64,000 nucleotides of DNA from positions 813-64,812 of the forward strand of contig JAJDCL010000017.1 in the NCBI GenBank assembly GCA_029260875.1. The letters are read 5' to 3'. The position numbers were made by a program, and so were the translations under genes. The stretch is from Candidatus Saccharimonadota bacterium. Its GTDB lineage: Bacteria; Patescibacteriota; Saccharimonadia; Saccharimonadales; OFTM59. How positions within the stretch are numbered: the first letter of the stretch is position 1; every line of letters starts with the position of its first letter. The notes under the pieces are model-generated. The model was not told the origin of the DNA and searched no databases. It was given only the letters and a program-made list of their open reading frames with translations. Shown piece by piece: positions 1,790 to 18,093 of this stretch.

Positions 1790-2500
1790 ATGTTCCTCAG
1801 GTATGCCCAGTCCAAGTCAAATTTGTTACTCATGAAAGAAGTCAGAGACGTGAAAATACATTGGCTGATGGTTCTCATGTTTGCAACCGCATTTGGACAG
1901 GTCTTCGGTGGTGTCGATAAGTCCGGTCGGGTCGGCGTCAAGAAGTGCACCGATACGTTTGCCTTTAGCCGTGTGCACAACACCAAGACGGACGACCCTC
2001 ATCTGAATAGAGCCATTCGATTTTCGAGTCTCACCTTGTTCGGAGATGACATTGAGTATCCGGAAATAGCCGCCTTTGGTAAGCGGGCCGATTTGGCTGC
2101 TGCAGAAAAATTCGATACGCAATATATAGATCAAGAGTTTGATGGCCTAAGTGGCTTCAATTGCATGAAAGGCCGATTCCAACTACCCGACCAAGCCAAG
2201 TTCAATCGACCCGACCCGATGCGCGACTGGAGCTGGCTCCAACCCCATTCGATAAACCTTTATGAATATGTCGGAAATGACCCGATAAATGCCTGGGGTC
2301 CGACAGGATTTGAGTTTAACGTATTAGATCTTGAGGATCATAATCTCGATCTAATGTTAGACGAGCTATCTCAAATTACGGGGTATACACGTGACTTCAA
2401 GACAACTGACGACGGGAGCACCATTCCGTTGGGAATATATGTTGATGATGACGGGAATGTTCAAGTTGCCGAAAACGCGGCTTTTGAAGACGGGTCATAG
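1790..2500 (+). CDS. small secreted protein with a degenerate RHS-repeat-associated core junction and a short C-terminal tip
   Basis: Signal-like hydrophobic segment (IHWLMVLMFATAFGQVFG). GRFQLPDQ..RPDP...NLYEYVGNDPINAWGPTG resembles the GRFxSxDP...NLYxYxxNNPxNxxDPxG end of Rhs/YD cores. About 75 aa of unrelated tail follow. Confidence 0.5.
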   Translation: MFLRYAQSKSNLLLMKEVRDVKIHWLMVLMFATAFGQVFGGVDKSGRVGVKKCTDTFAFSRVHNTKTDDPHLNRAIRFSSLTLFGDDIEYPEIAAFGKRADLAAAEKFDTQYIDQEFDGLSGFNCMKGRFQLPDQAKFNRPDPMRDWSWLQPHSINLYEYVGNDPINAWGPTGFEFNVLDLEDHNLDLMLDELSQITGYTRDFKTTDDGSTIPLGIYVDDDGNVQVAENAAFEDGS

Positions 2501-2675
2501 ACATCAAGAGATTTCTTGAAAAACGTAATAGAAAGCGATTTTTCGACTTTTGTCACCAACACAAAACCTTCCGAGAAGAAAAAACTTGCGCGCGCTCGCT
2601 TAGGCAGTGACGGAAATCCATCCCCAATTTTGAGAGGCAGTGCAGGTGACTATAGACAACTGATTTAGGCAATTT

Positions 2676-2706
2676 ACACCGGTACACTTTTATGTTGTCA
2701 AACGCA
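2676..2706. repeat. 31-bp direct repeat, left copy (acaccggtacacttttatgttgtcaaacgca)
   Basis: Perfect 31/31 match to 7627-7657 in the same orientation. The flanking sequences are unrelated. Confidence 0.9.
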
Positions 2707-2926
2707 TTGTCTAACCTGCCCTGACCCTCCACATTACAAAGATGACCAAGATTATGAAAAGACTTGCGTTTGAAACATATTTCTTGGACGTTGGGGGAAG
2801 GTGATCTGTCGGCTCCGTTTAGGAGTTCTCGAAACAGCTTGCATTATTGAATGCATGCATCAAATCATAACCTCAATATTTGTTGCGGGTTGGCCTTATC
2901 TTCGCTGGCTCAGATGGGACTAAATC

Positions 2927-3874
2927 ATGCACGACGAAGTCAACCGATATCTAGTTTTTTGTGACGATGTTCGCTCACTGTCAGGTCACACAATAAGAGC
3001 CTATCAGTCGGATCTGACCATGTTCATCAAATACGCATTTAGTCTTGGAATTAGAACGTCTTCTGAGATCTCAAAAGAGACTGTAAATTCGTTTGTCTCG
3101 TGGCGCAAAGAAACGGTCATCGCATCACGAAAAAGATATCTATCGAGCATTTTGGGATTTTTCAAATGGTTAACTCACGAAAATGTTCTGAAGGCAAACC
3201 CGTGTTCGGGGATAACAATCCGAGACCCGAGGAGGCGAGTATTACCTAAGTTGTTAAGCCGATCTGAAGTAACCAAATTGATTGCATATGCGTCAAACAA
3301 CTGCGCAACTCCGCCTGCCAAAGAGTGGCCGTCAATTCGTGCTGACGAATTAATGACGGATCAATACCGGACAATTATTTGTACGTTGGGATTGAGGTTC
3401 CTATATTATTCCGGAACCAGAATTGGAGAAATGGTGAGGTTGCCTGTTTCCTCGATCGATTTTCGAAAGGGAAGCGTGCTCATTTCCGGAAAGGGCAAGA
3501 AAGAAAGGGTTATCTATTTTTGGGACAAGGCTTTCCAGACTGATCTTCGTCACTACGTCCAACTTAGGAACTCTCTCTCATCGAATGAGGGTGCCTTGTT
3601 TTTGAGACAAGATGGAATACCCGCTTCTGACCAGTTTTTCAGGCGGCATTTTGGGAATTTGGGAAATGAGGCATTAAAAAAGAAAGTAACCCCACATATG
3701 CTCCGCCACTCCTCTGCTACTCACTTACTTGAGGATGGGGTTGATATCCGGGTTGTACAGAGGTACTTAGGCCACGCAAGTATAAGTACAACAGAAATTT
3801 ACACGCACGTTGCAGATGAATTTCTGAGAAAAGAAATGGCGAGAGTGGCACGTAAACGTGCCGCAAGGGCGTGA
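2927..3874 (+). CDS. tyrosine recombinase / integrase (XerC/XerD-like)
   Basis: C-terminal catalytic signature HMLRHSSATHLLEDGVDIRVVQRYLGHASISTTEIYTHV, an earlier GTRIGE box, and an N-terminal core-binding-type domain. Its TGA stop (3872-3874) lies inside the 27-bp inverted repeat. Confidence 0.9.
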   Translation: MHDEVNRYLVFCDDVRSLSGHTIRAYQSDLTMFIKYAFSLGIRTSSEISKETVNSFVSWRKETVIASRKRYLSSILGFFKWLTHENVLKANPCSGITIRDPRRRVLPKLLSRSEVTKLIAYASNNCATPPAKEWPSIRADELMTDQYRTIICTLGLRFLYYSGTRIGEMVRLPVSSIDFRKGSVLISGKGKKERVIYFWDKAFQTDLRHYVQLRNSLSSNEGALFLRQDGIPASDQFFRRHFGNLGNEALKKKVTPHMLRHSSATHLLEDGVDIRVVQRYLGHASISTTEIYTHVADEFLRKEMARVARKRAARA

Positions 3875-3898
3875 TTGATAATTAGGAATTATCTGTTG
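3872..3898. repeat. 27-bp inverted repeat, left arm (tgattgataattaggaattatctgttg)
   Basis: Perfect reverse complement of 7435-7461. It contains the TGA stop of the recombinase gene, then TTG and 7 further codons (MIIRNYLL). Confidence 0.95.
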
Positions 3899-5029
3899 CG
3901 AAGAGCAATATTTGAAGAATTGTTGTCCGGTCTCCACACTTTTGGACCGTACTGCAATGAATGTGGGGTAATTGCAGTAATTAATGTTGTCGGCCTAACC
4001 AACACGACAAAAGATTACGTTGGCTTTAGCGTACAAAACAGTTTCTTAACAGACGACGAGATTGACGAATTCATTAATGGCTGGCGGGCTTTAGGAGTTT
4101 ACGTTCAGCATTTTTCAGAGGAACGCGATTTTATGTCGTGGGTACTCTCTGGCGGATATCAAACGCTTAGAATTGCAAACAAATTTGTTTATACATCAGC
4201 TTTGAATGGAATTGGTCCAGGGCGTCGAGCTCTTATTCCATCTTTTTGTAATTACTTCGGGATTCCGACATTGAATTCGGACCCCTATGCATGTGCGATT
4301 AATCGGCATAAATTTCACTGGACACGCTTGCTCTCCACGTTTGGTATTCCCGTACCTCGAACATGGTGTCTTTCAAGTAATGGCGGCTGGGAAGATGGGC
4401 TAAAGCCTCCACAAGGAACTCAGGTCATCGCAAAGGCGACATACGAGGGCAGTAGTTTGGGTGTAAGTGAGGACAGTAACGGGACATTTGATACTAGACT
4501 TCATGACACCATACGTGAATTGGCGAATACGCTTAATCAACCGATTACCGTTCAGGAATTGATCCCAGGATTCGAGGCCGAAGTTCCCGTTATTTTCTTA
4601 GACAGGCACGTATCACTTGGCACAGCATTTCTCTCTATCAACGGTTCCGTCAATTTAGAGAACACCATTCTCACGTATGACACAGCCGCTGAGAATCTTT
4701 ACAGGTACACGACCGAAACTCACTTGCCAGGTGCTGTGCCTTTAAAGCTGTCGGCGATTGCCGAGCGTGTTGCTGGAATTATGAATTATGAAGGAATAAG
4801 TAGAGTGGACTTCCGAGTCACGAAGAACGGTACGCCATATGTGATCGACATTTCCAGTACGCCTCATTTAACTACAAACAACGCCGTTGGGTTTTTGTTT
4901 ACGCAGGCTGGACTTGAGTATCGTCAACTACTTTCTTCATTGCTATTTTCGACAATTAGAAGTGGAAATTACTGCTACTCGTCAGACCAAAATTCCAACT
5001 CAGATGGTAGAAACCCTCCGCGAAAGTAG
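3875..5029 (+). CDS. ATP-grasp fold ligase (D-Ala-D-Ala ligase-like)
   Basis: VIAKATYEGSSLGVS, VQELIPGFEAEVPV and GISRVDFRVTKNGTPYVIDISSTPHL match the ATP-grasp phosphate-binding, central and Mg-binding segments. It is in the same frame as the recombinase, separated only by TGA. The TTG start lies inside the IR. Confidence 0.7.
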   Translation: MIIRNYLLRRAIFEELLSGLHTFGPYCNECGVIAVINVVGLTNTTKDYVGFSVQNSFLTDDEIDEFINGWRALGVYVQHFSEERDFMSWVLSGGYQTLRIANKFVYTSALNGIGPGRRALIPSFCNYFGIPTLNSDPYACAINRHKFHWTRLLSTFGIPVPRTWCLSSNGGWEDGLKPPQGTQVIAKATYEGSSLGVSEDSNGTFDTRLHDTIRELANTLNQPITVQELIPGFEAEVPVIFLDRHVSLGTAFLSINGSVNLENTILTYDTAAENLYRYTTETHLPGAVPLKLSAIAERVAGIMNYEGISRVDFRVTKNGTPYVIDISSTPHLTTNNAVGFLFTQAGLEYRQLLSSLLFSTIRSGNYCYSSDQNSNSDGRNPPRK

Positions 5030-7458
5030 ATCCAACCTGGACCGACCAAATGAGACTGTTTTGTTGCGGCATATGAAGACCAATCTAATGCCTGGTTTGC
5101 TTCGTGGAATATGCCGGTAATAATTTCGTGGCGCCTCCTATAGTACATTTCGTTTGGACCGATCAGCTCTCCGAGAAAAGTGCCGGCCAACTTCCAGTGC
5201 ACAAGAGCTTGGTCACGATCGCCTAGCATAAATCTGCATCCCGCAATATTATTTTCGACGTAGTAATGGTAAAACCCATCAAAATCGCTCTTCAGCTTGA
5301 GCTGTTTTTCAACAGGAAGAAGTATTTTTAGGGCCCTTTGATATTCGCCTCCTACTGCCATTGCCCATGCAGCGTTGCTGACAATTAGAGATCTATCATT
5401 TGTTAAATCTGATTTCTTTGCCAAGCCGAGGAAATGACTTATCACATCACCTCTAGTTATCTTGCGGGCAAAGTAACCTGAAATTATCAGATTATTGACA
5501 AGAATGTCCATCCGCGGAAATACAAATGTACGATGATTTGAGACAACTTTCTTCCCTTGAAGGGCGGCGGAGTATGCGGATTCAAAATCTCCAGCCACTA
5601 TTCGATTTGCGGACAGATTTGTATGGCCGATGTAGGCGTGAACTGGGTCATAGGTGGGATTTCCCTCAGTAGAGGCGAAGTAGTCAATTGCCTGAAGAAT
5701 TCTCTCACGTGCTACTTCCGATGTGTGTAGCATATTGGCTTTCAGCCTGATACGGTTCAATAAATCGTTAGAGCTAGGATCGAAACCGAATCTTGCTTTC
5801 AATCTTTTCATAAGCAACCGCTCTGCACGCGCGGCCCTCGTTGTGTCTCCAAGAAAAAAGCACGCCACTATATAGTAAATCATCACCCTCCCCCAAACCT
5901 CAAACTCCTGAAGATCAACCTCAGCCCAGATGCTAAGGATCTCAACAGCGTTGCGTCTGTTAAACAAAGTAAGCAGCTTTATGTGGCTTCGAGCTTTGAG
6001 AATATCTCGTTCCGCGAGGAGCGAATCGGTGTATAAGTCCTCTACACTGTCTAGGAATATAAGCGCTTTTCTGTACCTCCCTGTATTGAAAGAGCACCAT
6101 GCTTGATTCATTTTCTCCAGAAATATCTTGATGCCAGGCACTAGTCCAAGAGTTGTAGCACTTATATCTACTTTCCTCCCGGATCTTTGTTCACTCAAGA
6201 AATCCAAGGCAAGAGCCTCAGAAACTCTCTTGTGGTCTTTCGCCTGACCAAGATGATAAGCGCGTCGTCTATATTCTCCTGGGCTAAGCAAACGTAGACA
6301 CTCTGCGAATTTCATGTTCTGTTCCACATGCCCAGCTTGGTTCTTTGTGAAAAAGAAATCATGAATCAACTCATGCGAAAAACGTCGTTCATTTCCTGAT
6401 TCAATAACTAATCTCATTGTCTGTGCAGGCCTCAAGATTTCTCGTATGTTCGAAATCGATAATTCGGTCAAGCATGAAAGTTCATTCTCAGAGAACGTCT
6501 GGCCGATAATTGAAGCCGATCGGAGTATGCTAATTGTCGAGTCGGCAGGCAATCGAAGTCCATGTAGGCGTTGCTCGATGAGTTCTTTTAAGAGGAAAGT
6601 CTTGTCAATTGATTCCTCGTCTAACAGTTGTGTTCCTTCAATAGCGTTTTTGCCCAATTGACGTGCAAATTCGAGGTGGCCACCGCATATACGATACAGA
6701 TCCTTAGGTAGGCTGGAGCCCGACCCAAATTGCAATCCGAAATCCCTCAGAATCTTCTCGAAGTATTCCTCGCTACAGAATCCCAGGCGGTAAGTCGCTT
6801 TGCAGTGCTTCTTTAGGAGGTCATTCATGATAATTGGTTCAGAAACTGGGCAGTCTTCGGTATCTACGACGAGAACAACCATATTTGCCAACTGAGGGAA
6901 AGCAGCATGTACTACCTTTTCGAGCATCATCGAAAGTAGCTCAAGTGACGCTTTGTCCCACCATTGGATGTCGTCACATATCAACAAGAGTCGCTGATTC
7001 TTGGCCAGAGAGCAGAGTTTAGCTAGTAGCCCTCTTTCAGTTTCAGAAAGGAACGGTGCCATAGACATTCTTCGGCGATCCGGGCTCTTCGATATATAGT
7101 GGAGTAGTTCACGGATGATTTTGCCAGCTAAAGGCAATGCTGCAGTCGATTCAATTATTGTGTTTTTTGCTGCATTCAATTGCTGACGTGCACTCTCGGA
7201 TACTACGGCTAAGTGTAGTGCATAAAAACTTCGATGACTCTGAATTTTGTCGCCTAAAGAGAATAGCGAAGAGCCGATATTTTCTTGCCATTTCTTTGCC
7301 AGAGCGTGCGCTAGCCAACTCTTGCCTGCTCCGCTTGGTCCAGTCAGTCGCATTAAAAGCCGTTTATTGCTTGAAAGCCTGCTGAATATTTCAGAGAGTA
7401 TTTCTGTTTGACCGGTAAGATCAGCTACTGAATCCAACAGATAATTCCTAATTATCAA
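4975..7458 (-). CDS. STAND/AAA_16-type NTPase with a long C-terminal helical (TPR-like) repeat region
   Basis: Walker A LTGPSGAGKSWLAHALA and Walker B LLLICDDIQWWD, followed by about 550 aa of helical repeat-like sequence. The TTG start and first 8 codons (MIIRNYLL) lie inside the right IR arm. Its 3' end overlaps the ATP-grasp gene by 55 bp. Confidence 0.7.
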   Translation of the reverse strand: MIIRNYLLDSVADLTGQTEILSEIFSRLSSNKRLLMRLTGPSGAGKSWLAHALAKKWQENIGSSLFSLGDKIQSHRSFYALHLAVVSESARQQLNAAKNTIIESTAALPLAGKIIRELLHYISKSPDRRRMSMAPFLSETERGLLAKLCSLAKNQRLLLICDDIQWWDKASLELLSMMLEKVVHAAFPQLANMVVLVVDTEDCPVSEPIIMNDLLKKHCKATYRLGFCSEEYFEKILRDFGLQFGSGSSLPKDLYRICGGHLEFARQLGKNAIEGTQLLDEESIDKTFLLKELIEQRLHGLRLPADSTISILRSASIIGQTFSENELSCLTELSISNIREILRPAQTMRLVIESGNERRFSHELIHDFFFTKNQAGHVEQNMKFAECLRLLSPGEYRRRAYHLGQAKDHKRVSEALALDFLSEQRSGRKVDISATTLGLVPGIKIFLEKMNQAWCSFNTGRYRKALIFLDSVEDLYTDSLLAERDILKARSHIKLLTLFNRRNAVEILSIWAEVDLQEFEVWGRVMIYYIVACFFLGDTTRAARAERLLMKRLKARFGFDPSSNDLLNRIRLKANMLHTSEVARERILQAIDYFASTEGNPTYDPVHAYIGHTNLSANRIVAGDFESAYSAALQGKKVVSNHRTFVFPRMDILVNNLIISGYFARKITRGDVISHFLGLAKKSDLTNDRSLIVSNAAWAMAVGGEYQRALKILLPVEKQLKLKSDFDGFYHYYVENNIAGCRFMLGDRDQALVHWKLAGTFLGELIGPNEMYYRRRHEIITGIFHEANQALDWSSYAATKQSHLVGPGWIYFRGGFLPSELEFWSDE

Positions 7459-7461
7459 TCA
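7435..7461. repeat. 27-bp inverted repeat, right arm
   Basis: caacagataattcctaattatcaatca is the exact reverse complement of 3872-3898. Confidence 0.95.
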
Positions 7462-7472
7462 AAACTACGAAT

Positions 7473-7481
7473 ATTCTATCA
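7473..7481 (-). promoter_or_regulatory. candidate extended -10 element (TGaTAGAAT) reading into the right IR arm
   Basis: The minus strand reads tgatagaat, 14 nt upstream of the TTG at 7458. I saw no clear -35 or Shine-Dalgarno. Confidence 0.25.
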
Positions 7482-7619
7482 CAGAATTTGGGTATCCATA
7501 ATTAGTTTCGAATTGTGACTTAGTTCCCAAATCACCACTTTTTGTGCGATACACATTTCGCTCGTTATTGGCTCCTTAGAGTAACGGCTGTCTTTTTTAA
7601 CCTAGGTGGGACACTTTTA

Positions 7620-7770
7620 CATGATCACACCGGTACACTTTTATGTTGTCAAACGCACTTGGTTTACGACTTTGTCGGGCGCTATCACCACACACCACAC
7701 AAAGGCTTGGCCGGTTACACACCCCACCAAGCTTCTATCGGCGACTGGATTCAAGCCTTTCACCACCGCC
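7620..7770 (+). pseudogene. remnant of a DDE (rve-type) transposase C-terminus
   Basis: Translation ...LVYDFVGRYHHTPHKGLAGYTPHQ resembles the YNxxRPHxxLxGxTP tail of IS481/IS3-type integrase-fold transposases. No upstream catalytic domain is present. Confidence 0.4.
7627..7657. repeat. 31-bp direct repeat, right copy
   Basis: Perfect match to 2676-2706. It lies within a DDE-transposase C-terminal remnant. Confidence 0.9.
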
Positions 7771-8515
7771 AGCGTTCCTTGGATGACTCTTACCGAAGCC
7801 ACTCTTCACGATTTGCCTATCCACGACTCGCGAAACCCTTACCCAATCACGTCTCAATCAATATCCGACAATTAGTGCACAACGAACAACTCAGTGGCCC
7901 GAACATACATACCCTTTTGGAGATCCAGTAGTTCACACCCCAAAAATCAGCCCAGAATCCATCTCTACACATATGGGCAAAAATGCAAGTTTGGGGCGAG
8001 TTGGTTCGGAGAAACGCGCTCAAAGAAAAACGTGGTTTGTCAATTTGAAGCAAGCGATCGTTGAATAACCGTCGATTAGGCTTAGCGACTTAATGTCAAA
8101 AATTTTCAAGCAAAATTATGGGCCTATGGGATCACCAATCTACGGCGAGCCAATAGTACCAACTGTTTAGGGGCGAAGTCATGTAAAAGAATTTCCAGTT
8201 TCATAATGGTCCATAACTCTAATGGGATAGGTTGAATCAACGACATTAGGCAGATTTCGACGCATCGGCACCCAAAATGTGGTCATCGAAGACTATTTAC
8301 GTCGGACACGCCAACTGTTTGTAGACGGTGTTAACACCGCCAAACACAAGGAGTGTCATTATGCTAGAAAATCTGATCCTAATACTTAAGCTTGTCTACT
8401 TGGTTGAGAGCGTTTGGCAGATCTACTGTCGCGTCAGAGCGAAACGAAGGGCAAATGAAGAAGAGAGCAAAGTTCAAAATCCGGGAATCCTCTCAAGCGA
8501 CCGAACCCCCCAATG

Positions 8516-10039: not shown

Positions 10040-11632
10040 TCACTCGACGGTGCCTTGACCTATCTGCGAAGCACTCGCGGCCGTCTGTCGACCGTGGCCA
10101 GTGGGATACCACACGTCGATATACTTTTGAATCGAGGATGACCACAATTTGATTATCTTCTCATGGATCGGTGTGGCCGTAGCGTCAATATGCTTGCTGT
10201 ACAAGTAACAGGCATGATCACAAGATTCCGACTCGAAAGCATCCCACCCGATTCTTTCGAGTCGACTCAGTCTTGCAAGGACGACGATTTGTCGCTGCCC
10301 AAGTACATATGTCACGATCATCTCCCATTTTGGCAGGTTTCTGACACTTGGAGTTGCGGTGATCGTGAGGTCACGCCAAGGCCCTTCTTCGGTACGTGAA
10401 AACGAAATCACACTGCTTGATTTTTGATACAACGCTTGAATAAACAAATTTCGTATCGATTGCAACCGATAAGCAAGAGTGGAGTCTCTTCTGACTTTGG
10501 CGCGCAAACGGTCGACTTCTTTGTCCGATAATCTATTTCCAGCAACATCTACGTAGAAAGACTCTCTCTTGAGCTTCAAGAAAAGTTTTGGGATGTCATT
10601 GTCCTGAAACCACTGGCAAAAGTAAGAATCACCATAAATCAAAGAAGCGGACTGGTCATCTATTGACAAGTCGTAACACGACGCAATTTCGCTTTCAAGC
10701 CGTAAAGAATCGAAGTTACTTCTTAGCACCGACAAGTAATTGTTCGCTTCATCTTGCTTAAAGTACATCTGTTCATCGTGGTGGATTCGCGATGTTATCG
10801 ACGGAGCTTCGTGTTGGTCTTCGCTTGGCAATTTTACGCCGCCTATATAGGGTATCAGTGCATTGCGCAATTCAATGGACACTGGTACGAATTCCACATT
10901 TATGTCGCTCTGGCACACCCAATGAGGAGTTTGCGAGTATTTTTGAAATTTGTCTTGAAGTGATTTTACTAAATCTGGGTACGTGAGTGAGTCCTCTACA
11001 AAGGTGGCAACACTATCTACCAGGTGATGCGTAAATAGAGAAAGTTGATTAATACCGTCCGGAGGGTAAGGGCCACTTGAACCCTGGTCCCACCGCGACG
11101 AGGAAAGGAAATACAAGGAATCAAGAGCGGGTGAAGGATCGTTTCGAAGATCTCCTCCCCTGAAATGGTCTGTACCCTTGATATAGTTTGTTCCACAGAA
11201 ACAGGAATCGATTATACGGCAATAAACCTTTGGCTGAACGACACGTATCCAATCGTCAAGTTCAGTTAAGCTGATTGATGTCGACCTTTCACGGTCATAA
11301 ACAAATTGCCGTAGTGCGAAAGCGTATTCATTGTCGACACGCGTTCCATGTCCCGATAGATAGATGACAATGTCCCCTACGTCCTGTTTTAGATACGCAT
11401 GAAGAAATCCCCGAACTTCCTTTTTCACGCTTGGCGCTGATTTCAAAGTATCTGGTACCAATATGTTTTCCTCTGAGTACTTCCCCGAATGGACCAGCAA
11501 GGTTTTCATCGCCTTCACATCGTGATTGCAGAACGGCAGATCGATCTCGTGGTCATACTTTGAGACACCAACAAGGACACCTATATTCACGTTAACTCCA
11601 ATAGTCAATTGTACTAATTTTTCACAGGACAA
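10040..11632 (-). CDS. caspase-like (peptidase C14) protease with an uncharacterised C-terminal domain of about 330 aa
   Basis: VGVSKY...HDVKAM, a catalytic His context IVIYLSGHG and a catalytic Cys context RIIDSCFCG, in the order and spacing of the caspase/metacaspase fold. Confidence 0.7.
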   Translation of the reverse strand: MSCEKLVQLTIGVNVNIGVLVGVSKYDHEIDLPFCNHDVKAMKTLLVHSGKYSEENILVPDTLKSAPSVKKEVRGFLHAYLKQDVGDIVIYLSGHGTRVDNEYAFALRQFVYDRERSTSISLTELDDWIRVVQPKVYCRIIDSCFCGTNYIKGTDHFRGGDLRNDPSPALDSLYFLSSSRWDQGSSGPYPPDGINQLSLFTHHLVDSVATFVEDSLTYPDLVKSLQDKFQKYSQTPHWVCQSDINVEFVPVSIELRNALIPYIGGVKLPSEDQHEAPSITSRIHHDEQMYFKQDEANNYLSVLRSNFDSLRLESEIASCYDLSIDDQSASLIYGDSYFCQWFQDNDIPKLFLKLKRESFYVDVAGNRLSDKEVDRLRAKVRRDSTLAYRLQSIRNLFIQALYQKSSSVISFSRTEEGPWRDLTITATPSVRNLPKWEMIVTYVLGQRQIVVLARLSRLERIGWDAFESESCDHACYLYSKHIDATATPIHEKIIKLWSSSIQKYIDVWYPTGHGRQTAASASQIGQGTVE

Positions 11633-11740
11633 GTGCTAAAACATGCGGATGTGACGCCATTATAGACTTCCCCAATCTGAAAGCTACGATGAAGCCACAA
11701 CGACAGAAATCCGGTGCCCCCCGATGATTGGGAAATCAAA

Positions 11741-12847
11741 CTAAAGTTGGTACAAGATAACTAGGAAAATGAACCCTGCAATCAGTAGAGTCGCACAACC
11801 TGATTTATTGGTCGACCTTGCAATAGATTTGCTAACTTGCAGTAATTCACGGTTCCAATTTACTTCCCAATTGTCTGGAACATCGAATACGATCGAAATC
11901 GTCTCACTACGAGCCTCCGCACCATCCTCGACGTTGGCGTTCATCCTTGCTATTTGGTCAAGTTGATCAGCTAAATCAGCAACCTTGTTAGCATGAACGC
12001 TAGTTGTATCGCGAAGCAACGCCAATAGTCTTTGATAATTATCCGATACCAACACAAATCGCACAGACTCCTCGAAGTTGATAACTTGTTCAAACCAGCG
12101 ACCGATCAGACATGTAGTATGACGAATTTCGTCAGCATCTCCCGGCTCTCCAGGCAATCCCCAGCTGTTGTTCAAGCGCGTAAAGAGTTTAGTAATTGGG
12201 GTTATCATTTCCGATAGCTGAGATAACCGACCACGGATCCACGTCAACGCATTGTCGTCTTCTATAGGTATTTGCGGCTTCACATAATATCCTCCACGTA
12301 GGTCATGTAGCCGTCTTATGAGCGGACTGTTGTAGTGACGCATTAATTCGGCCGTCAACCTATATTCCCATGCAACTGGTTTATCAATGATGATTCGTCG
12401 AATAAGCGGTGGGAACTCCATGAATTGAGATAGTTGAATGGACAATTCGTCCTTGAGGATACGATCAGTGGCATTGCCTAACTCCGACAGAACGTATACT
12501 TCATGTGACTCTCGCCAGGTAAACAGTACAAAGGCCGAGTAATGGTTTTCTGAGTCAATAAGCTTATGGCAGTTTCGACACAACCAAAGTCCATTTGTTA
12601 TGTCCGCACGAGATTGATCGGTCATATTGGGATCAAATCTCATTGCGTTGGGACGTGCCCCAAAGATATGGGCAGCCTCACCAATCAACGTTGCCTTTGT
12701 CGGTATCGAGTTGGGCCCAACGGTGGTGACTCGGCAATCAGGATTTGAACACCTAAATGCTGCCCGCTTTGCGAGAATGTCAATTGTACTTTTGTTAAAA
12801 TCAGGATACATTGCGGAAATTCTACATCGTAAATGTAAGTAGACCAA
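11741..12847 (-). CDS. HNH-like nuclease-domain protein with a C-terminal transmembrane anchor
   Basis: CSNPDC...GEAAHIFGARPN...NGLWLCRNCHKLID (Cys4 HNH pattern) at the N-terminus, a helical middle region and a terminal TM helix (ATLLIAGFIFLVILYQL). The start is possibly ATG 12811 (MYPDFNK). Confidence 0.6.
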   Translation of the reverse strand: MVYLHLRCRISAMYPDFNKSTIDILAKRAAFRCSNPDCRVTTVGPNSIPTKATLIGEAAHIFGARPNAMRFDPNMTDQSRADITNGLWLCRNCHKLIDSENHYSAFVLFTWRESHEVYVLSELGNATDRILKDELSIQLSQFMEFPPLIRRIIIDKPVAWEYRLTAELMRHYNSPLIRRLHDLRGGYYVKPQIPIEDDNALTWIRGRLSQLSEMITPITKLFTRLNNSWGLPGEPGDADEIRHTTCLIGRWFEQVINFEESVRFVLVSDNYQRLLALLRDTTSVHANKVADLADQLDQIARMNANVEDGAEARSETISIVFDVPDNWEVNWNRELLQVSKSIARSTNKSGCATLLIAGFIFLVILYQL

Positions 12848-13171
12848 AGTTATGCCGTTGCCTTACTAGGCACGTGCTTATCGAGGAAGGTGATCGCACT
12901 TGCCAAAAGGGATTGATATCCATGGAGGGCAGCTGGTTGTTCCTCGTGGCATGTCCGACATCAATATAGCGGCGCGTCTTGATCGGTGCTTGGCTTCTTT
13001 TTGCTTCAATTCGGGTCGCAAATTTAAGTTCGATCCGATGATTTTGGTCGCCGATCCCCCTAAACTGATATTCAAGTCGGCGCTAAATAGATGGACTTTC
13101 AACTCCATGATGCATTCACGGTAACATAGCTATTCTGGACAAATGGATTGAAGGAAGCGACAGTGAGGGCA

Positions 13172-13990
13172 CTAACGAAAAAACAATGATCCCGGACGTC
13201 TGCTGATACCGTCACAAATCACGATGCCTCCAGTCCACTTTCCATTAATGTTGTATCGATACTGAAGGTTCCTGATTCTACTCGAAAACTTACTTTTAAT
13301 TTTATTGTAGTCTCGAATATGAACGCTGGAAATATGTCCTTTGCAATACGATTCGATAGCGATTGGACTGACAATTGCTGAAACCAAGAGATCCGCTATC
13401 TGTAGACCTGCATGATTGTTGCTGTGGCCAAAAACGGGCATTTCCCGCATATTATCTAAGCTGTCCCCAGCCGCTTGATATTTTTGTGTGAAAACGCTAT
13501 GGGCAACCGATGTGTTTAAATATTTATTTCGACTGTCGGCTATGATAAATCCTCGTTTAGAATAATATTTCATCATGTCTTGAAAAGCAGAGCAAATGGA
13601 TTGAACTGACGACGTGTAAATGGCTCTGCCATCGAACTTTGCAGCGATTGGCTTAACCCAAACCCTGCCAATCAATTTCATTTGATAACGTTCTGCAAGA
13701 CGTACAATACAATCTAAAAACCAAATTGCCGCACGGCGTCGCGAACTGGATCCAACAGCGATATCCTTACGTAGATCGGATCCCTTTATTTCCCAATCAA
13801 TTAAATCTAAATACCGATACGGACGGCCATGCCGTCGGTACTTCTTTTTTAGGTCCAACACAGCGAAAGTGACTTTACGGAGATCTCTTTCCTGCATCAC
13901 CAATCCCAGTATTGAAAATACAGGCTCTACATTTGAGATTGCCGAAGGCAACTCTCCGGGGCAGCCAGCTTCATCAAGGTACAGGATCAT
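13172..13990 (-). CDS. DUF3800-family protein
   Basis: N-terminal MILYLDEAG (the hhhDExG motif) and a distal LQIADLLVSAI, both typical of DUF3800. Confidence 0.6.
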   Translation of the reverse strand: MILYLDEAGCPGELPSAISNVEPVFSILGLVMQERDLRKVTFAVLDLKKKYRRHGRPYRYLDLIDWEIKGSDLRKDIAVGSSSRRRAAIWFLDCIVRLAERYQMKLIGRVWVKPIAAKFDGRAIYTSSVQSICSAFQDMMKYYSKRGFIIADSRNKYLNTSVAHSVFTQKYQAAGDSLDNMREMPVFGHSNNHAGLQIADLLVSAIVSPIAIESYCKGHISSVHIRDYNKIKSKFSSRIRNLQYRYNINGKWTGGIVICDGISRRPGSLFFR

Positions 13991-14271
13991 GAGGTCAAGA
14001 TACAGCTATGGCCACCCAAAAGAGTGGCCATAGTACCCGCCGCCTGGCTTTCACCAGTTCGGCTCATAAGTAACAAATTACTAGTTGAAGTATATATCTT
14101 CGCGAAGACATGCGTCAAGTAATCTACTTCTTGCATGTTTATTTCTTTGTATCGATGCATCAATAAAGATACTTTGATCTTGTCAACCACGCGATTTTCC
14201 TTCTGGTAGATACTAGCACCGAGTTTCCAATATTCAACCACTAAGCATGTGACTGACTGCCTCCTCCCCAA
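13987..14271 (-). CDS. hypothetical 94-aa protein coupled to the DUF3800 gene
   Basis: ATGA stop/start overlap at 13987-13990. I recognise no motif. Confidence 0.3.
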   Translation of the reverse strand: MGRRQSVTCLVVEYWKLGASIYQKENRVVDKIKVSLLMHRYKEINMQEVDYLTHVFAKIYTSTSNLLLMSRTGESQAAGTMATLLGGHSCILTS

Positions 14272-14400
14272 TAGGCCCAGTGTCCCCTAAGCCGCGATAG
14301 CCGCCAATCCTCAGACTAAATTTGTCTCCCAGTTCAGTCTCTTATACATCTGAGCAGATAACACTAGAGTAAATGTGACTCAGCACAGAATCCATCTCTA

Positions 14401-14554
14401 TGACTCTACCCCGAATCGAAGGACAGTGTAAGTTTTAGGCGGCCACTTCAACGGTTAATCTTGTATTCATTTCCAGCACAAATATTTCATAAGGATTCAC
14501 ATGGGAGTACATCAGCGGCGTCAATGCTCTGAAGCCTTCCATTTCTATTCCAAT
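14401..14554 (-). mobile_element. second IS3-family terminal fragment (terminal IR plus a short coding tail)
   Basis: 14404-14443 matches 8519-8558 (34 bp perfect, 39/40 overall). The terminus begins TGACTCTACCCCGAATCGAAGGACAGTG. Confidence 0.6.
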
Positions 14555-14648
14555 CCAATAATCTAGATGCGTGCTTTTGCCTCCCCCATCAACATAATAG
14601 ACGCCCTGAGGTATGTCCGATCATGCTCTGCAGCGACTGTCCCGATTC

Positions 14649-14830
14649 CTATGCGTCACCTGTTTTCTTTAGTTCTGCTGAGGTCCTCATCTGAGCTACC
14701 ACCTGATTCCGTCCGTTGTCTTTCGCTTGATATAGGCTTCGATCGGCTATGTCTACCAGTTGCGACGGCGTTGTTTGCGAATCTTTCATCTCGCCGACAC
14801 CAACGCTGATCGTCACAATACCCATTACTG
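14649..14830 (-). pseudogene. C-terminal fragment of a GGDEF diguanylate cyclase
   Basis: ...TISVGVGEM...LVDIADRSLYQAKDNGRNQVV matches the end of GGDEF domains. The GGDEF motif itself and the N-terminal part are absent. Confidence 0.55.
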
Positions 14831-15289
14831 TTGATTCATGGGTCATATTCATTTGCGCCACGGTATCACAAAGGTTCAGAACGGCATACTGCCATTGGTG
14901 ATGCGCAGGCAACACGCATTCTTTATTTGAAGCTGATGACCATTTTTCGGCAAAACTTTCCTAGATTGGGTTCAAGGCCACATGATATAGAGCCAATCTC
15001 ATCCTCTGAACCTGGGAGCATCTCGAGTTTTGAAACACGTGTATAGCCGATTCGAGTTGAACCTCAGGTACCAAAATTGACGCCTACCAGAGTCATTTTG
15101 CATGGCCAGATTCTGATCGCTGTCGACCCGCCAGCACGACCGATTAGCATGGGTTCTTCATTTTCAAAACTCATGTTTAGGGGATTTGGCGAGAATGGAT
15201 TCCGATTTCGCGAACACAACATTCCAACAAACAAAACCATCCAGCGGCCAGATTAGATTGTGTATCCAAAGAACATTTTGCGTTACAGA

Positions 15290-15700
15290 TCACTTTGTGA
15301 GAGTCCTGAAAGTTCCGGGAGGTGGAACTCGTAGAGAAAACCAGTCAAATTCGAATATCGCATCTTGTTCATCCGCAACTGTCATGCCTGGCCGGACTAT
15401 GACCTCATTCCCTGGCTCCCCTGTTATTTGATTTACAACTACTACATTAAGCGTCGGGATATCATTGTTAACACAGTGTTTACCTATTAACCCGAGTTGC
15501 CGACCCAATGTATGACCCGCCCTTCGGTCATAATATCCCATTTGAATGGCTAAATCTCCATATGTCAATTTACGGGGTCCAGTTAACGAGAATCCAAACC
15601 TTCTTCCCATCACAAAGGCAACGAGAATCACCCATATCTGATGTGCTTGTTCGTAATGCCTATCGCCAGTTTTGGTTCGCTTTATTTTCGGATAATTCAT
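15290..15700 (-). CDS. hypothetical protein
   Basis: The ORF has a GAGAGGTG-like RBS upstream of ATG 15700 (MNYPKIKR). LTYGDLAIQMG...GRQLGLIG is faintly reminiscent of winged-helix DNA-binding modules, so no firm family call is made. Confidence 0.35.
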   Translation of the reverse strand: MNYPKIKRTKTGDRHYEQAHQIWVILVAFVMGRRFGFSLTGPRKLTYGDLAIQMGYYDRRAGHTLGRQLGLIGKHCVNNDIPTLNVVVVNQITGEPGNEVIVRPGMTVADEQDAIFEFDWFSLRVPPPGTFRTLTK

Positions 15701-16034
15701 TGTAAACACCTCTCTGTTTGTGCAGTTTAGCACATATTGAGCAAAATGCCCGTAATTTTGAGGCATTTTGACCATCGCGAATCCGAATATCGAATAATTT
15801 GGACCCTGGCTTGAGCCTCTGAGCGCCACAATTGCGGGTCAGTACATCGGACGACACGATCGCGGCCTGATTTCCGAAGCCTTCGTCACCAAAGGGGATC
15901 CACAACAAGGCGTGAGGTTGCGTGATTGTCTCGAGTAGGGGTCAACTCCGTGAATATAGTCTCTTCGAAGTATTGGCGGAACCAAAAACCTTGAGGGACA
16001 TCTATCAACAACTTGGTGAAAAGATTGAGCACAA

Positions 16035-16440
16035 TCAAGGAAAATGCGTTGTTTGCAGAGGCACGATAGTTTCCGGGTTGAGGATCTGGGTTTGTCGATT
16101 CGCGCTCTCAAGTGAAATGTGAGTCAGGTCCTCGTGCCAGACTACCCACCTGTTAAGGATACTACACGCCGTTAAATTTTGTGCATTGCTCAGGTCGCTT
16201 TTAACTGTTGAGAGGGTACGGCTCCCTCCGAGGCTCATCAGATAGGCAGGAATCACTCCTGCCGATGATAGGGAGTCGTTGATGAGCTTGGCTCTTGCTT
16301 CGGCTTTCAGAATATCCGTCTTATTCAGCCGTGATTTCACTTCGATCCATGCGCGGACACCTTCAAGGAAGAATCCCTTGTCATGATCTGTAAAGGACAA
16401 GAGTGGAAAGCGAGCATCATAGATCACAATGTCGTATTGG
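16035..16440 (-). pseudogene. 5'-truncated gene fused behind the truncated tnpA (possible PD-(D/E)XK-like fragment)
   Basis: The reading frame continues out of the tnpA junction. YDIVIYD...EGVRAWIEVKSRL has a D...E.K-like pattern. Weak. Confidence 0.25.
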
Positions 16441-17517
16441 CCTGCATCGACACTGATCAGCCTCAATGGCGGCGAACGGATCTGTTCCGGTCTGCTTGGC
16501 TTGTAGCAAGGCTCGCCCGATCCGTGAGTAGAGTCGCACCTTGTCGTTGATCGCTCTGCCGTCTTTGTGAAACCGTTCGACATGGCGGCGTTTCGCGCGG
16601 CTAAAGAGAGCGCTGAGCACGCGACCGTGGAGATCGATTGTCTCGTCGATCAGTGTCGCCTGTGTGTCGAGCGTGATCGCGACTAGGGTGGCGTAGCGCC
16701 GAATAGGCTCCAGGTCACGAAGGTGCTGGGCAGTCATCTGCCCTCCTTCGCGGGCAAGCTTGAGAAGTCTGTTCTGGTGGGCAGCATGTTGCAAACCATC
16801 AGGTAAGCTGATGTCACGAATTACCTCAAGGCGCGAGATATGGGCGAGGATATGCTTGGCATTCGGCGGTCCTGGAGACTGGCGCAGCCAAGCGAGACTA
16901 CTCACTTTGGAGTCATCGCGTATCGACAGCAAACTGTCCAGAGCGCGGCAGTGGTGTTCTGCCAGCGGCTCAGTCAGGGCTTCGTAGACCAGGCGAGTGC
17001 CAAGTGTCAGGGCTTCAGCACAGAGGCGGTCGATTACATCGACCCCGGGTATTATAATGTGCTGTTGACGCAGCATCTTCACCATGGCTACAGCAAGCAC
17101 GATACCGCGGTCAGTTTGCTGGGCCAGCTCGGAAAGCCGGTCCACCATGCAACGGTAATCGAACTGACTAAAGGTCGACAGATTAAGCCATGCCTGTAGC
17201 TCGATAAGATGTTCACGCCGCGTTTCCGCCCGCTGCGCGTATTGTTGCCAGATAGACACATCCACGCCCAACTGCATAGCGACCAGTGCAAGCAAGGAGG
17301 CTGGTGGTTCTGCGTCGGTCGGTAGTGAGGAGCCGGGATAGCGCAAACAGCAGAGTTGCACCGCAAACCCAAGTCGGTTGTGGCTCCCGCGTCTTTGGCG
17401 GATCGTTGACAGATCGGATTCGGTGAACGAGTAGTAGCGGATCAAATCATCGTCGGTTGTCGGAAACGCCAGTATCATTTCTCTCTCAGCAGCGTTGAGC
17501 AAACGTCGGCGGGGCAT
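16417..17517 (-). pseudogene. tnpA: Tn3-family (Tn21-like) transposase TnpA, N-terminal about 360 aa only
   Basis: MPRRRLLNAAEREMILAFPTTDDDLIRYYSFTESDLSTIRQRRGSHNRLGFAVQLCCLRYPG is the DUF4158 N-terminus of Tn3-family transposases. The DDE domain is missing. This patch is visibly more GC-rich than its surroundings. Confidence 0.85.
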
Positions 17518-17520
17518 CGA

Positions 17521-18081
17521 TCACTTGTCCATCTTGAGGTACTGGTAAACGGTCTCGCGACTAATCCCGAACTCTCGGGCAAGAACAGCCTTTTGTTCAC
17601 CAGCAGCAACACGATTGCGTAGCTCGTTTGCTCGTTCACTGGAAAGCGCCTTCTTGCGGCCACGGTACGCGCCTCTCTGCTTGGCCAACGCGATCCCTTC
17701 GCGCTGCCGCTCACGAATTAGGGCCCGCTCAAACTCAGCGAAGGCGCCCATCACAGACAGCATGAGGTTCGCCATCGGCGAGTCCTCCCCTGTGAACGTG
17801 AGACTTTCTTTGACAAACTCGATTCGTACGCCGCGCTCGGTGAGGGTCTGAACGAGACGTCGGAGGTCATCCAAGTTACGCGCCAGACGGTCCATGCTGT
17901 GCACCACCACGGTGTCGCCTTCGCGCACAAAGGTGACGAGGCGCTCAAGCTCGGGGCGCTTGCTGTCCTTGCCCGAAGCCTTGTCGGTGAAGACCTGGTT
18001 CACCGGGACATGCTCTAACTGACGCTCTGATTTCTGGTCGATGCTGCTGACCCGCACATAGCCGATGCGTTGACCCGCCAT
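17521..18081 (-). CDS. tnpR: serine recombinase, Tn21-type resolvase TnpR
   Basis: MAGQRIGYVRVSSIDQKSERQLE..., DRLARNLDDL and a C-terminal HTH (REFGISRETVYQYL). It sits immediately upstream of tnpA on the same strand. Confidence 0.9.
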   Translation of the reverse strand: MAGQRIGYVRVSSIDQKSERQLEHVPVNQVFTDKASGKDSKRPELERLVTFVREGDTVVVHSMDRLARNLDDLRRLVQTLTERGVRIEFVKESLTFTGEDSPMANLMLSVMGAFAEFERALIRERQREGIALAKQRGAYRGRKKALSSERANELRNRVAAGEQKAVLAREFGISRETVYQYLKMDK

Positions 18082-18093
18082 GCCGTACTCCAA

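Follow-up and report, generated by a model that had tools for sequence, protein, structure and literature searches.

A 3.59-kb invertible DNA segment was identified in a 64-kb stretch of contig JAJDCL010000017.1 from a Candidatus Saccharimonadota bacterium; this whole stretch is referred to as the window, and all coordinates are positions in it. The segment carries two convergent genes, one encoding an ATP-grasp ligase resembling D-Ala-D-Ala ligase (Ddl) and the other encoding a STAND NTPase, and it lies between two inverted dif-like recombination sites, one of which adjoins a gene for a Xer-like tyrosine recombinase. Three features by which programmed inversions are recognized were found, namely inverted repeats, a locus-encoded recombinase with intact catalytic motifs, and the natural occurrence of both orientations, and there is hardly any doubt that the segment is an active inverton. 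The inversion probably acts as a programmed, phase-variable switch that swaps the ligase for the STAND protein, and the flipping is presumably carried out by the adjacent recombinase.

The recombinase gene (2927 to 3874, plus strand) ends with a TGA stop codon (3872 to 3874) that forms the first 3 bases of the left recombination site (3872 to 3898), a 27-nt sequence with the structure TGATTG-ATAATTAGGAATTAT-CTGTTG. The final TTG of this site is the start codon of the ligase gene (3896 to 5029, plus strand), which encodes 377 amino acids (aa). The right recombination site (7435 to 7461) is the reverse complement of the left one and holds the TTG start codon (7437 to 7435) of the STAND NTPase gene (4975 to 7437, minus strand; 820 aa), the extent of which follows an NCBI-derived gene call. 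The perfect 27-nt inverted repeat TGATTGATAATTAGGAATTATCTGTTG at 3872 to 3898 and 7435 to 7461 encloses exactly these two genes, and both start codons fall within it as its last 3 bases. Within the first 12 kb of the window, no other perfect inverted repeat exceeds 14 nt, and the chance expectation for such a pair is about 4e-9 by our own arithmetic. The inner arms of the site, ATAA and TTAT, have a dif-like layout, and an AGGA in the middle of the repeat is located 8 nt upstream of each start codon; this purine-rich spacer could act as a ribosome-binding site for the adjoining start codon. No intrinsic terminator was predicted between the convergent genes in the window.

A preliminary description of this DNA had reported convergent open reading frames (ORFs) at 3875 to 5029 (plus strand) and 4975 to 7458 (minus strand) with a 55-bp overlap at 4975 to 5029. 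This arrangement was confirmed by the ORF listing and by the stop codons at 5027 to 5029 (ligase) and 4975 to 4977 (STAND), which produce a tail-to-tail overlap of 55 bp. The extents hold as mechanical ORFs but not as genes, the real starts being TTG 3896 rather than 3875 and TTG 7437 rather than 7458. The two mechanical ORFs begin with the same 8 residues, MIIRNYLL, because both of their 5' ends fall in the perfect inverted repeat. The ligase start at TTG 3896 is supported by an alignment with 36 homologues and by the gene call on a public Logan contig, whereas the NCBI-derived record calls a 298-aa ligase starting at an internal Met, an example of how inconsistently annotation pipelines call the genes of such segments.

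Inversion was documented in several pairs of contigs or loci holding homologues of the module, which were retrieved from genomes and metagenomes and are designated by L numbers. Two assemblies of one Limnocylindrales genome (L004 and L012) are 100% identical over 8.1 kb up to the site, after which the segment is inverted. Two soil contigs, L006 and L023, have the same flank, which leads into the ligase start in L006 and into the STAND start in L023. A Tahibacter-related metagenome locus with 96% identity is flipped with respect to the isolate (L005 and L020), and the same ligase gene occurs behind different flanks in L008 and L009. The window organism itself provided further evidence: its Logan contigs assembled with a k of 31 (SRR15505512 and SRR15505513) match the window at 100% and end at 3898 or 3901, and the invertible segment assembles alone as 3872 to 7464 in these read sets. 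The repeat is shorter than k, and manual comparison of its two copies, flanks included, revealed no 30- or 31-mer in common. The contig breaks at the repeats therefore indicate that both junction types are present in the reads, since a single orientation would assemble through. In addition, several homologues are located on contigs of 3.55 to 3.65 kb, and both of those with inspected ends (L028 and L111) are bounded by sites. Among reference assemblies, the recombinase gene is followed by the ligase gene in 9 lineages and by the STAND gene in 3. In assemblies, such segments cause breaks or appear in an orientation that is arbitrary. The preliminary description had raised the possibility that the two genes are alternatives set by segment orientation; the inversion that this implies is borne out by the repeats, the recombinase, and the two orientations, and mutually exclusive expression is suggested by the architecture of the locus.

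The convergent ligase/STAND pair with dif-like sites at both 5' ends was found in about 27 lineages, usually with the recombinase gene adjacent, and in every related locus long enough to judge, the partner gene was present, convergent, adjacent, and usually overlapping. Three host phyla were named: Pseudomonadota, with the plasmid pMRAD01 (401104 to 405562) of Methylobacterium radiotolerans JCM 2831, Tahibacter aquaticus DSM 21667, and a Hyphomicrobiaceae metagenome-assembled genome (MAG); Chloroflexota, with a Limnocylindrales MAG; and Bacillota, with a plasmid (5762 to 9357) of Paenibacillus sp. IHBB 10380. Further loci that were reached through STAND homologues and plasmid records showed the same layout. 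Even among four distant STAND representatives (22 to 25% identity), all four have a convergent neighbor, which is the ATP-grasp gene except in L107, counted by position on the basis of a convergent 74-aa gene fragment at the contig end, and the recombinase gene is present too where the contig allows. The pairing of the two genes is far from chance. The preliminary description had called the pairing unusual, which the co-occurrence across about 27 lineages shows to be both real and conserved. It had also considered that the two families might not co-occur elsewhere and that each gene might be a housekeeping one; the co-occurrence, together with NCBIfam scores far below the Ddl and XerC/D cutoffs, speaks against this.

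The sites flanking the pair in about 27 lineages share the pattern G-ATAA-yTnGGAa-TTAT-G, and the 37 sites tabulated give the consensus GATAACTAGGAATTATG, i.e., G-ATAA-C-T-A-G-G-A-A-TTAT-G. ATAA-N7-TTAT is present in 37 of the 37, although the sites were selected with that pattern. The inverted repeats of related loci are homologous and range from 16 to 30 nt, and the 27-bp repeat of the window approximates a complete Xer core site in length. Within a segment, both sites always have an identical spacer, whereas invertons lying side by side (L031, L007, and L018) differ in spacer, as is expected if strand exchange needs identical spacers and neighboring segments are insulated from each other. 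The spacer is purine rich in most sites. More than half of the sites (22 of 37) end in ATG, and in the others a start codon is found no more than about 10 nt away. In Paenibacillus, a perfect 30-nt repeat takes in a canonical GGAGG, and the ATG and TTG start codons lie immediately interior to it. Reading the GATAAT of the site as the -10 element of a leaderless mRNA was considered and rejected, because 27 of the 37 sites read GATAAC. The sites are inverted and are not attC-like, which sets them apart from those of integrons.

The recombinase is a 315-aa protein that matches Pfam Phage_integrase (1.6e-36) and Phage_int_SAM_1. Its closest solved relative is Escherichia coli XerD (1a0p; 5.9e-31), and the catalytic motifs R, K, H-x-x-R, H, and Y all align to those of XerD, which shows that the catalytic site is intact. 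It scores 200.6 and 198.8 bits against the XerC and XerD equivalog models (200 to 205 bits overall), which does not reach their cutoffs of 335 and 330, and it is not of the IntI type, with 127 and 76 bits against the integron-integrase models versus cutoffs of 265 and 435. The enzyme next to the segment is thus a tyrosine recombinase and not a serine recombinase; the serine resolvase gene of the region (17521 to 18093) is located 10 kb away, beside a Tn3 fragment. The recombinase gene adjoins the module in about 15 related lineages, and in 11 lineages its stop codon lies between -4 and +12 nt of the site core. The recombinase start codon is preceded, at a distance of about 60 nt, by a palindrome, ATTATTGAATGCATGCATCAAATCAT (2843 to 2868), which may function as a promoter element or operator of the recombinase gene.

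The ligase ORF matches Pfam Dala_Dala_lig_C (4.7e-16), and its AlphaFold model, with a predicted local distance difference test (pLDDT) score of 88.9, has the three-domain ATP-grasp fold. Its 50 highest-ranking structural matches consist entirely of D-Ala-D-Ala, D-Ala-D-Lac, or related ligases, with identities of 14 to 19%, and Foldseek comparisons with Ddl and VanA gave E values of about 1e-17 and template modeling (TM) scores of up to 0.83 normalized to the target. A profile of the ligase family can be aligned to the Ddl ATP-grasp core, and the family keeps the lysines that bind ATP, the GSS loop, and the R-x-D motif. The Ddl motif E-x-N...P-G is replaced by D325-x-S327...P-H331, so that the Mg-binding E-x-N reads D-x-S, and the G of the Ddl substrate loop is an H that is near-invariant across the family. 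The best NCBIfam score of the ligase is 67.8 bits versus a Ddl cutoff of 243, and it falls below every Ddl cutoff. Homologue searches delineated a small and distinct family. On these sequence grounds, the protein is a Ddl-like enzyme without an assigned substrate and not the cell wall Ddl. The last 16 residues of the 384-aa ORF (369 to 384) were modeled as disordered, and the SSDQNS tail is the antisense reading of the conserved C-terminal motif of the STAND protein. The 55-bp overlap is hence explained by a disordered ligase tail that reads through over the conserved STAND C terminus, and the preliminary description had given the overlap too much weight.

The STAND ORF matches Pfam AAA_16 (4.8e-13) and, weakly, NB-ARC, and the protein contains a Walker A motif, GPSGAGKS, and a Walker B motif, LLLICDD, with the P-loop at residues 33 to 40 of 820. 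The AlphaFold model (pLDDT 77.5) begins with a P-loop domain at the N terminus, continues through a helical and winged-helix region, and includes TPR-like helices over about 400 aa (approximately residues 367 to 780). Its top structural matches are the STAND-TPR protein 6mfv, Apaf-1, MalT, Avs3, and plant NLRs. Domain order, motifs, and modeled fold together place the protein among the STAND NTPases. Pfam, the translations, and the models thus agree with the earlier assignment of the two proteins as a Ddl-like ATP-grasp enzyme and an AAA_16/STAND protein with these motifs and TPR-like helices. As had also been stated, the STAND protein has no recognizable effector domain: none was found, and the position of the P-loop leaves no room for an N-terminal domain. 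The proposed likeness to an Avs-like antiphage sensor fared less well, given the lack of both a PADLOC match and an N-terminal effector.

The C terminus of the STAND family is strongly conserved as [DE]-[LIV]-[QE]-[FY]-W-[ST]-[DE]-x-COOH; of 131 members, 110 have W at position -4. The window protein has the acidic C terminus ...SELEFWSDE-COOH (4975 to 5000), and the tail is kept whether or not it overlaps the ligase gene. An exhaustive search yielded 193 STAND clusters (50% identity) at an E value of ≤1e-30, a family size that a word-index protein search heavily undercounted (3 to 7 matches), and nearly all of the listed full-length members are about 825 aa long and align end to end. An identification as the TPR protein of the FxSxx-COOH system was rejected because the match is limited to 45 residues around the P-loop and reaches 27 bits versus a cutoff of 300; the likeness of the FWSDE tail to FxSxx-COOH was treated as a coincidence.

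In the proposed mechanism, the Xer-like recombinase would recombine the inverted dif-like sites at 3872 to 3898 and 7435 to 7461 and flip the 3.59-kb segment. Each site would supply a spacer resembling a ribosome-binding site and a start codon, within the site or abutting it, and hence a ready translation start at either end. The gene adjoining the recombinase gene would be cotranscribed with it and probably translationally coupled, because the recombinase ORF ends in or beside the site and leaves no room for a terminator. This proximal slot would be occupied by the ligase gene in the window orientation and by the STAND NTPase gene after a flip. The distal gene would rely on a promoter in the outer flank and would be antisense to read-through from the proximal gene, since the genes overlap tail to tail without a predicted terminator. 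Cells of one population may therefore be in either of two heritable and reversible states, with different proportions of ligase and STAND protein. The placement of stop and start codons in or beside the sites and the lack of a predicted terminator make such orientation-dependent expression a reasonably probable expectation. The retention of the sites, the recombinase, and flipping across phyla also argues, by selection, that orientation matters.

Several observations weigh against this proposal. Promoter scanning gave 4 matches versus 9 expected in the window and 25 versus 24.6 expected in Paenibacillus; these numbers do not exceed chance and are uninformative as to which flank drives expression. 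In the distal flank of the window (7462 to 7626, minus strand), which lies between the right site and the right copy of a direct repeat, an extended -10-like sequence, TGATAGAAT, at 7481 to 7473 (minus strand) points into the segment; it was read directly from the sequence, was not called by the consensus scan, and is a putative promoter element. Several other distal flanks carry -10-like hexamers, and given these elements, both genes may be transcribed in both orientations. The recombinase gene is divergent or is located 50 to 162 nt from the site in three loci, and no recombinase was found within the 15-kb locus of L007, where one may act in trans. In addition, the strict pairing of the two families, maintained across a large evolutionary distance, is more in keeping with partners than with alternatives; L030, a locked derivative lacking intact sites, keeps both genes, and in L018 the STAND gene lies in an apparent operon with a second ATP-grasp gene. 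In a separate comparison, the similarity of the distal flanks of L003 and L005 is no better than that of shuffled sequences (17 versus 15.4 ± 2.1), and so the distal flank cannot be shown to be part of the element.

In a different explanation, the ligase and the STAND protein are partners needed together, as sensor and enzyme or as enzyme and substrate. Both flanks would then provide promoters, and inversion would alter the ratio of the two proteins or the fraction of recently flipped cells that hold both. This explanation predicts the obligate pairing seen in about 27 lineages and in all 4 of the distant STAND representatives, and the strict coinheritance, which persists down to a STAND identity of 22%, argues for a functional link between the two proteins, so that their earlier characterization as functionally unrelated is probably wrong. 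The locked locus L030 (2650 to 6254), beside an acetyl coenzyme A synthetase gene, retains both genes intact with only a half-site, AATTATG. Cassette 1 of L012 (1591 to 5400), which also lies beside an acetyl coenzyme A synthetase gene (acs), is locked as well, a 214-bp inverted duplication of the acs 3' end having replaced the sites, and there the ligase gene is intact and the STAND gene is frameshifted. The same-strand ATP-grasp gene that follows the STAND gene in L018, the -10-like elements of some distal flanks, and the conserved acidic STAND tail with its W at -4 likewise agree with a partnership. Acidic protein C termini are classic substrates of ATP-grasp enzymes such as RimK, LysX, and tubulin-tyrosine ligase, and the STAND tail resembles the substrates of these enzymes. 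By this analogy, the two proteins might form a write/read pair in which the ligase would modify the acidic tail [DE]-[LI]-Q-F-W-S-[DE]-x-COOH and inversion would alternate a sensor phase and a modifier phase; the fraction of armed and disarmed cells would be set by a DNA flip-flop whose site doubles as a ribosome-binding site. The tail could also serve as a pseudo-ligand for the TPR array of the same protein. The write/read pair is nevertheless a speculative idea of low probability: the modeled Ddl-like fold, that of a small-molecule ligase, does not favor modification of the STAND tail, and no RimK/LysX-type chain is among the 50 best structural matches. The partner explanation as a whole is rather unlikely. 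Without a differential effect of orientation, it would be hard to explain why sites, recombinase, and flipping have been retained across phyla; the tail-to-tail overlap without a terminator disfavors strong simultaneous transcription; and the same sites also enclose other pairs, such as the methyltransferase and 432-aa protein genes of L031, which suggests a general either/or device.

A role of the sites and the recombinase mainly in moving the cassette between replicons, as in pdif modules or integrons, with inversion as a side reaction that regulates nothing, would account for the dif-like sites, for the Xer-like recombinase, and for the presence of the module on plasmids and in variable islands beside insertion sequence (IS) elements. 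The recombinase gene and the invertible segment of the window are, moreover, enclosed by a perfect 31-nt direct repeat, ACACCGGTACACTTTTATGTTGTCAAACGCA, at 2676 to 2706 and 7627 to 7657, which delimits a unit of 4951 bp and is present in just 2 copies in 64 kb, with 0 expected; as a repeated 31-mer predicts, Logan contigs L001 and L002 begin at 2677. Diverged direct repeats of about 280 nt (82% identity) occupy the same position in Tahibacter L005 (6618 to 6898 and 12008 to 12265). The direct repeats may be the boundary of a mobile cassette comprising the whole unit. Their sequence is unrelated to the inversion site, however, and the idea that the 31-nt repeat is a target duplication within a transposase-like ORF was rejected because joining the outer flanks gave no continuous ORF. 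The ties of the site to start codons, to a spacer resembling a ribosome-binding site, and to the recombinase stop codon would be needless for pure mobility, and flipping is the observed outcome, with neither an empty target site nor an excised circle seen. Mobility as the main function is therefore considered improbable. A static pair, in which a housekeeping D-Ala-D-Ala ligase gene happens to lie beside an unrelated ATPase gene within a chance inverted repeat, agrees with the label "D-alanine–D-alanine ligase" that some sources give to homologues, and it can practically be dismissed in view of the score of 68 bits against a Ddl cutoff of 243, the replacement of the Ddl E-x-N and G by D-x-S and H, the perfect 27-nt repeat that is unexpected by chance, and the two documented orientations. 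An inversion switch between the ligase and the STAND protein remains the favored explanation.

The genes around the module, both in the window and in related loci, are often those of defense systems or mobile elements. The neighbors include Wadjet JetC/JetD, NERD-UvrD, and ParE genes in L029, an Mrr/SduA-like gene and an M78 gene in L031, AbiEi/AbiEii in L018, TIR and P-loop NTPase genes in Methylobacterium, and HipA and BrnT/A in L108. In the window, a sigma-70-like gene (51 to 527) and an M78 ImmA/IrrE peptidase gene (867 to 1679) are located upstream of the recombinase gene, followed by an ORF (1790 to 2500, plus strand) containing YVGNDPINAWGPTG, which has no Pfam match and looks like the final part of an RHS/YD-repeat core with a variable toxin tip behind it. 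On the other side, the ORF tail FVGRYHHTPHKGLAGYTPHQ (7658 to 7931, within the ORF at 7542 to 7931, plus strand) lies immediately beyond the right direct repeat, has no Pfam match, and resembles the C terminus of an rve-type DDE transposase; it probably represents what is left of an IS element. Farther downstream are genes for a caspase-like C14 peptidase (10040 to 11632) and an HNH_2 protein (11741 to 12847), DUF3800 and DUF6602 genes (within 10040 to 18093), and a Tn3-family transposase fragment (DUF4158; 16417 to 17517) adjoining the serine resolvase gene (17521 to 18093). Rfam searches gave nothing above noise in 2400 to 8300. The module of the window sits in a variable region rich in mobile elements, and this neighborhood is consistent with a conflict system without proving one. 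A function of the module in conflict or defense is possible but is put forward only tentatively, and the lack of any PADLOC match at an E value of ≤0.01 for the three window proteins counts against it. No evidence was found that the module is phage borne: a scan of viral contigs with the site consensus gave 73 single matches, about the number expected by chance by estimate, with L064 as the one real member, and a phage collection gave two weak ligase matches.

The same site family also encloses other convergent cargo, in L031 (4491 to 6651), L007 (9796 to 12552), L107 (76 to 245), and L018 (805 to 819). The L031 cargo consists of genes for an S-adenosylmethionine (SAM) methyltransferase and a 432-aa uncharacterized protein that overlap tail to tail, and the other examples include genes for small membrane proteins set against genes for 500-aa and 219-aa proteins, as well as a lone site before a FabH-like gene. 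The methyltransferase has a marginal PADLOC match to mad2, which was read as generic methyltransferase similarity, and the second ligase of L018 has a marginal PADLOC match to a CARF model (E value of 0.065). An impression from motifs that a 295-aa protein of L018 is a RelA/SpoT-like effector was dropped after Pfam, PDB sequence, and PADLOC searches gave nothing. Two identical 41-nt copies resembling the 5' halves of tRNAs are located in L007 (5060 to 5100 and 5202 to 5242), about 0.9 kb upstream of the invertons. The other cargo points to a wider class of two-gene toggles, which this family of sites and recombinases may drive.

Site-specific inversion that chooses between alternative genes is a known principle, exemplified by the Mu G segment and by shufflons. 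In the G segment of phage Mu with its recombinase Gin, as in P1 C with Cin and e14 P with Pin, an invertible segment of about 3 kb with an adjacent recombinase gene contains two alternative sets of genes that converge; both share a 5' part through which expression comes in from outside the segment, and orientation picks the set. Gin, a serine invertase, depends on Fis and an enhancer, and the alternatives are homologous tail fiber variants with a constant N-terminal part. The module described here is like the G segment in the size of the segment, the adjacent recombinase, and the convergent genes inside; it differs in that the recombinase is a Xer-like tyrosine recombinase, only the spacer resembling a ribosome-binding site and the start codon region are common to the two genes, and the products are unrelated. 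Invertible promoters, such as fimS with FimB/FimE, those of Bacteroides capsule loci, and those flipped by RecV in Clostridioides difficile, are promoter elements of 200 to 400 bp whose flipping turns expression ON or OFF. They share with the present module phase variation by a tyrosine recombinase acting on short inverted repeats, whereas here the promoter side stays fixed and a 3.6-kb cargo of two genes flips, giving A or B.

The dif site is 28 bp long, and the pdif modules of Acinetobacter plasmids are also bounded by inversely oriented sites. In accordance with these systems, the recombinase of the module is most like XerD, XerC, and XerA, and its sites, 27 bp long in the window, have inner ATAA and TTAT arms and a short asymmetric spacer. 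In contrast to them, a single recombinase is encoded beside the sites and falls below the equivalog cutoffs, the sites are merged with translation signals, and the outcome observed is inversion and not dimer resolution or module transfer. Tyrosine recombinases encoded beside short inverted repeats are also found in the R64 Rci/pilV shufflon and in the hsdS invertons with CreX/PsrA, where reversible inversion in clonal populations changes the product, often in a phage defense context (PMC7672463, PMC7096588, PMC9881135). In these systems, the repeats lie inside the coding sequence and homologous domains are swapped, whereas in the present module the exchange takes place at the start codon and involves entire genes that are unrelated. 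A systematic survey of gene-altering inversions (PMC9881135) makes no mention of ATP-grasp or STAND proteins, and a full-text literature search found no earlier description of the three-gene module.

With regard to the cargo, the STAND protein has in common with Avs3 (8dgc), MalT (8bob), Apaf-1, and PH0952 (6mfv) the P-loop NTPase, the winged helix, and the TPR-like array, and it differs from them in having no fused effector or DNA-binding domain, a C-terminal tail of its own, and an obligate ATP-grasp neighbor. The ligase has the same three-domain ATP-grasp fold as Ddl and VanA, with identities of 15 to 19% and scores far below the cutoffs. The design is kept across at least three phyla and has no match in the PADLOC defense catalogue. 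The programmed inversions known so far either turn a promoter around or exchange homologous segments of a single protein, whereas whole genes are exchanged here, and what differs is the combination of a Xer-like enzyme, a dif-like site that doubles as a translation start, and a swap of unrelated but obligately paired genes. If confirmed, this switch would add A-or-B logic, rather than ON/OFF, to bacterial phase variation and would be the first link of a STAND/NLR-like sensor to an ATP-grasp enzyme.

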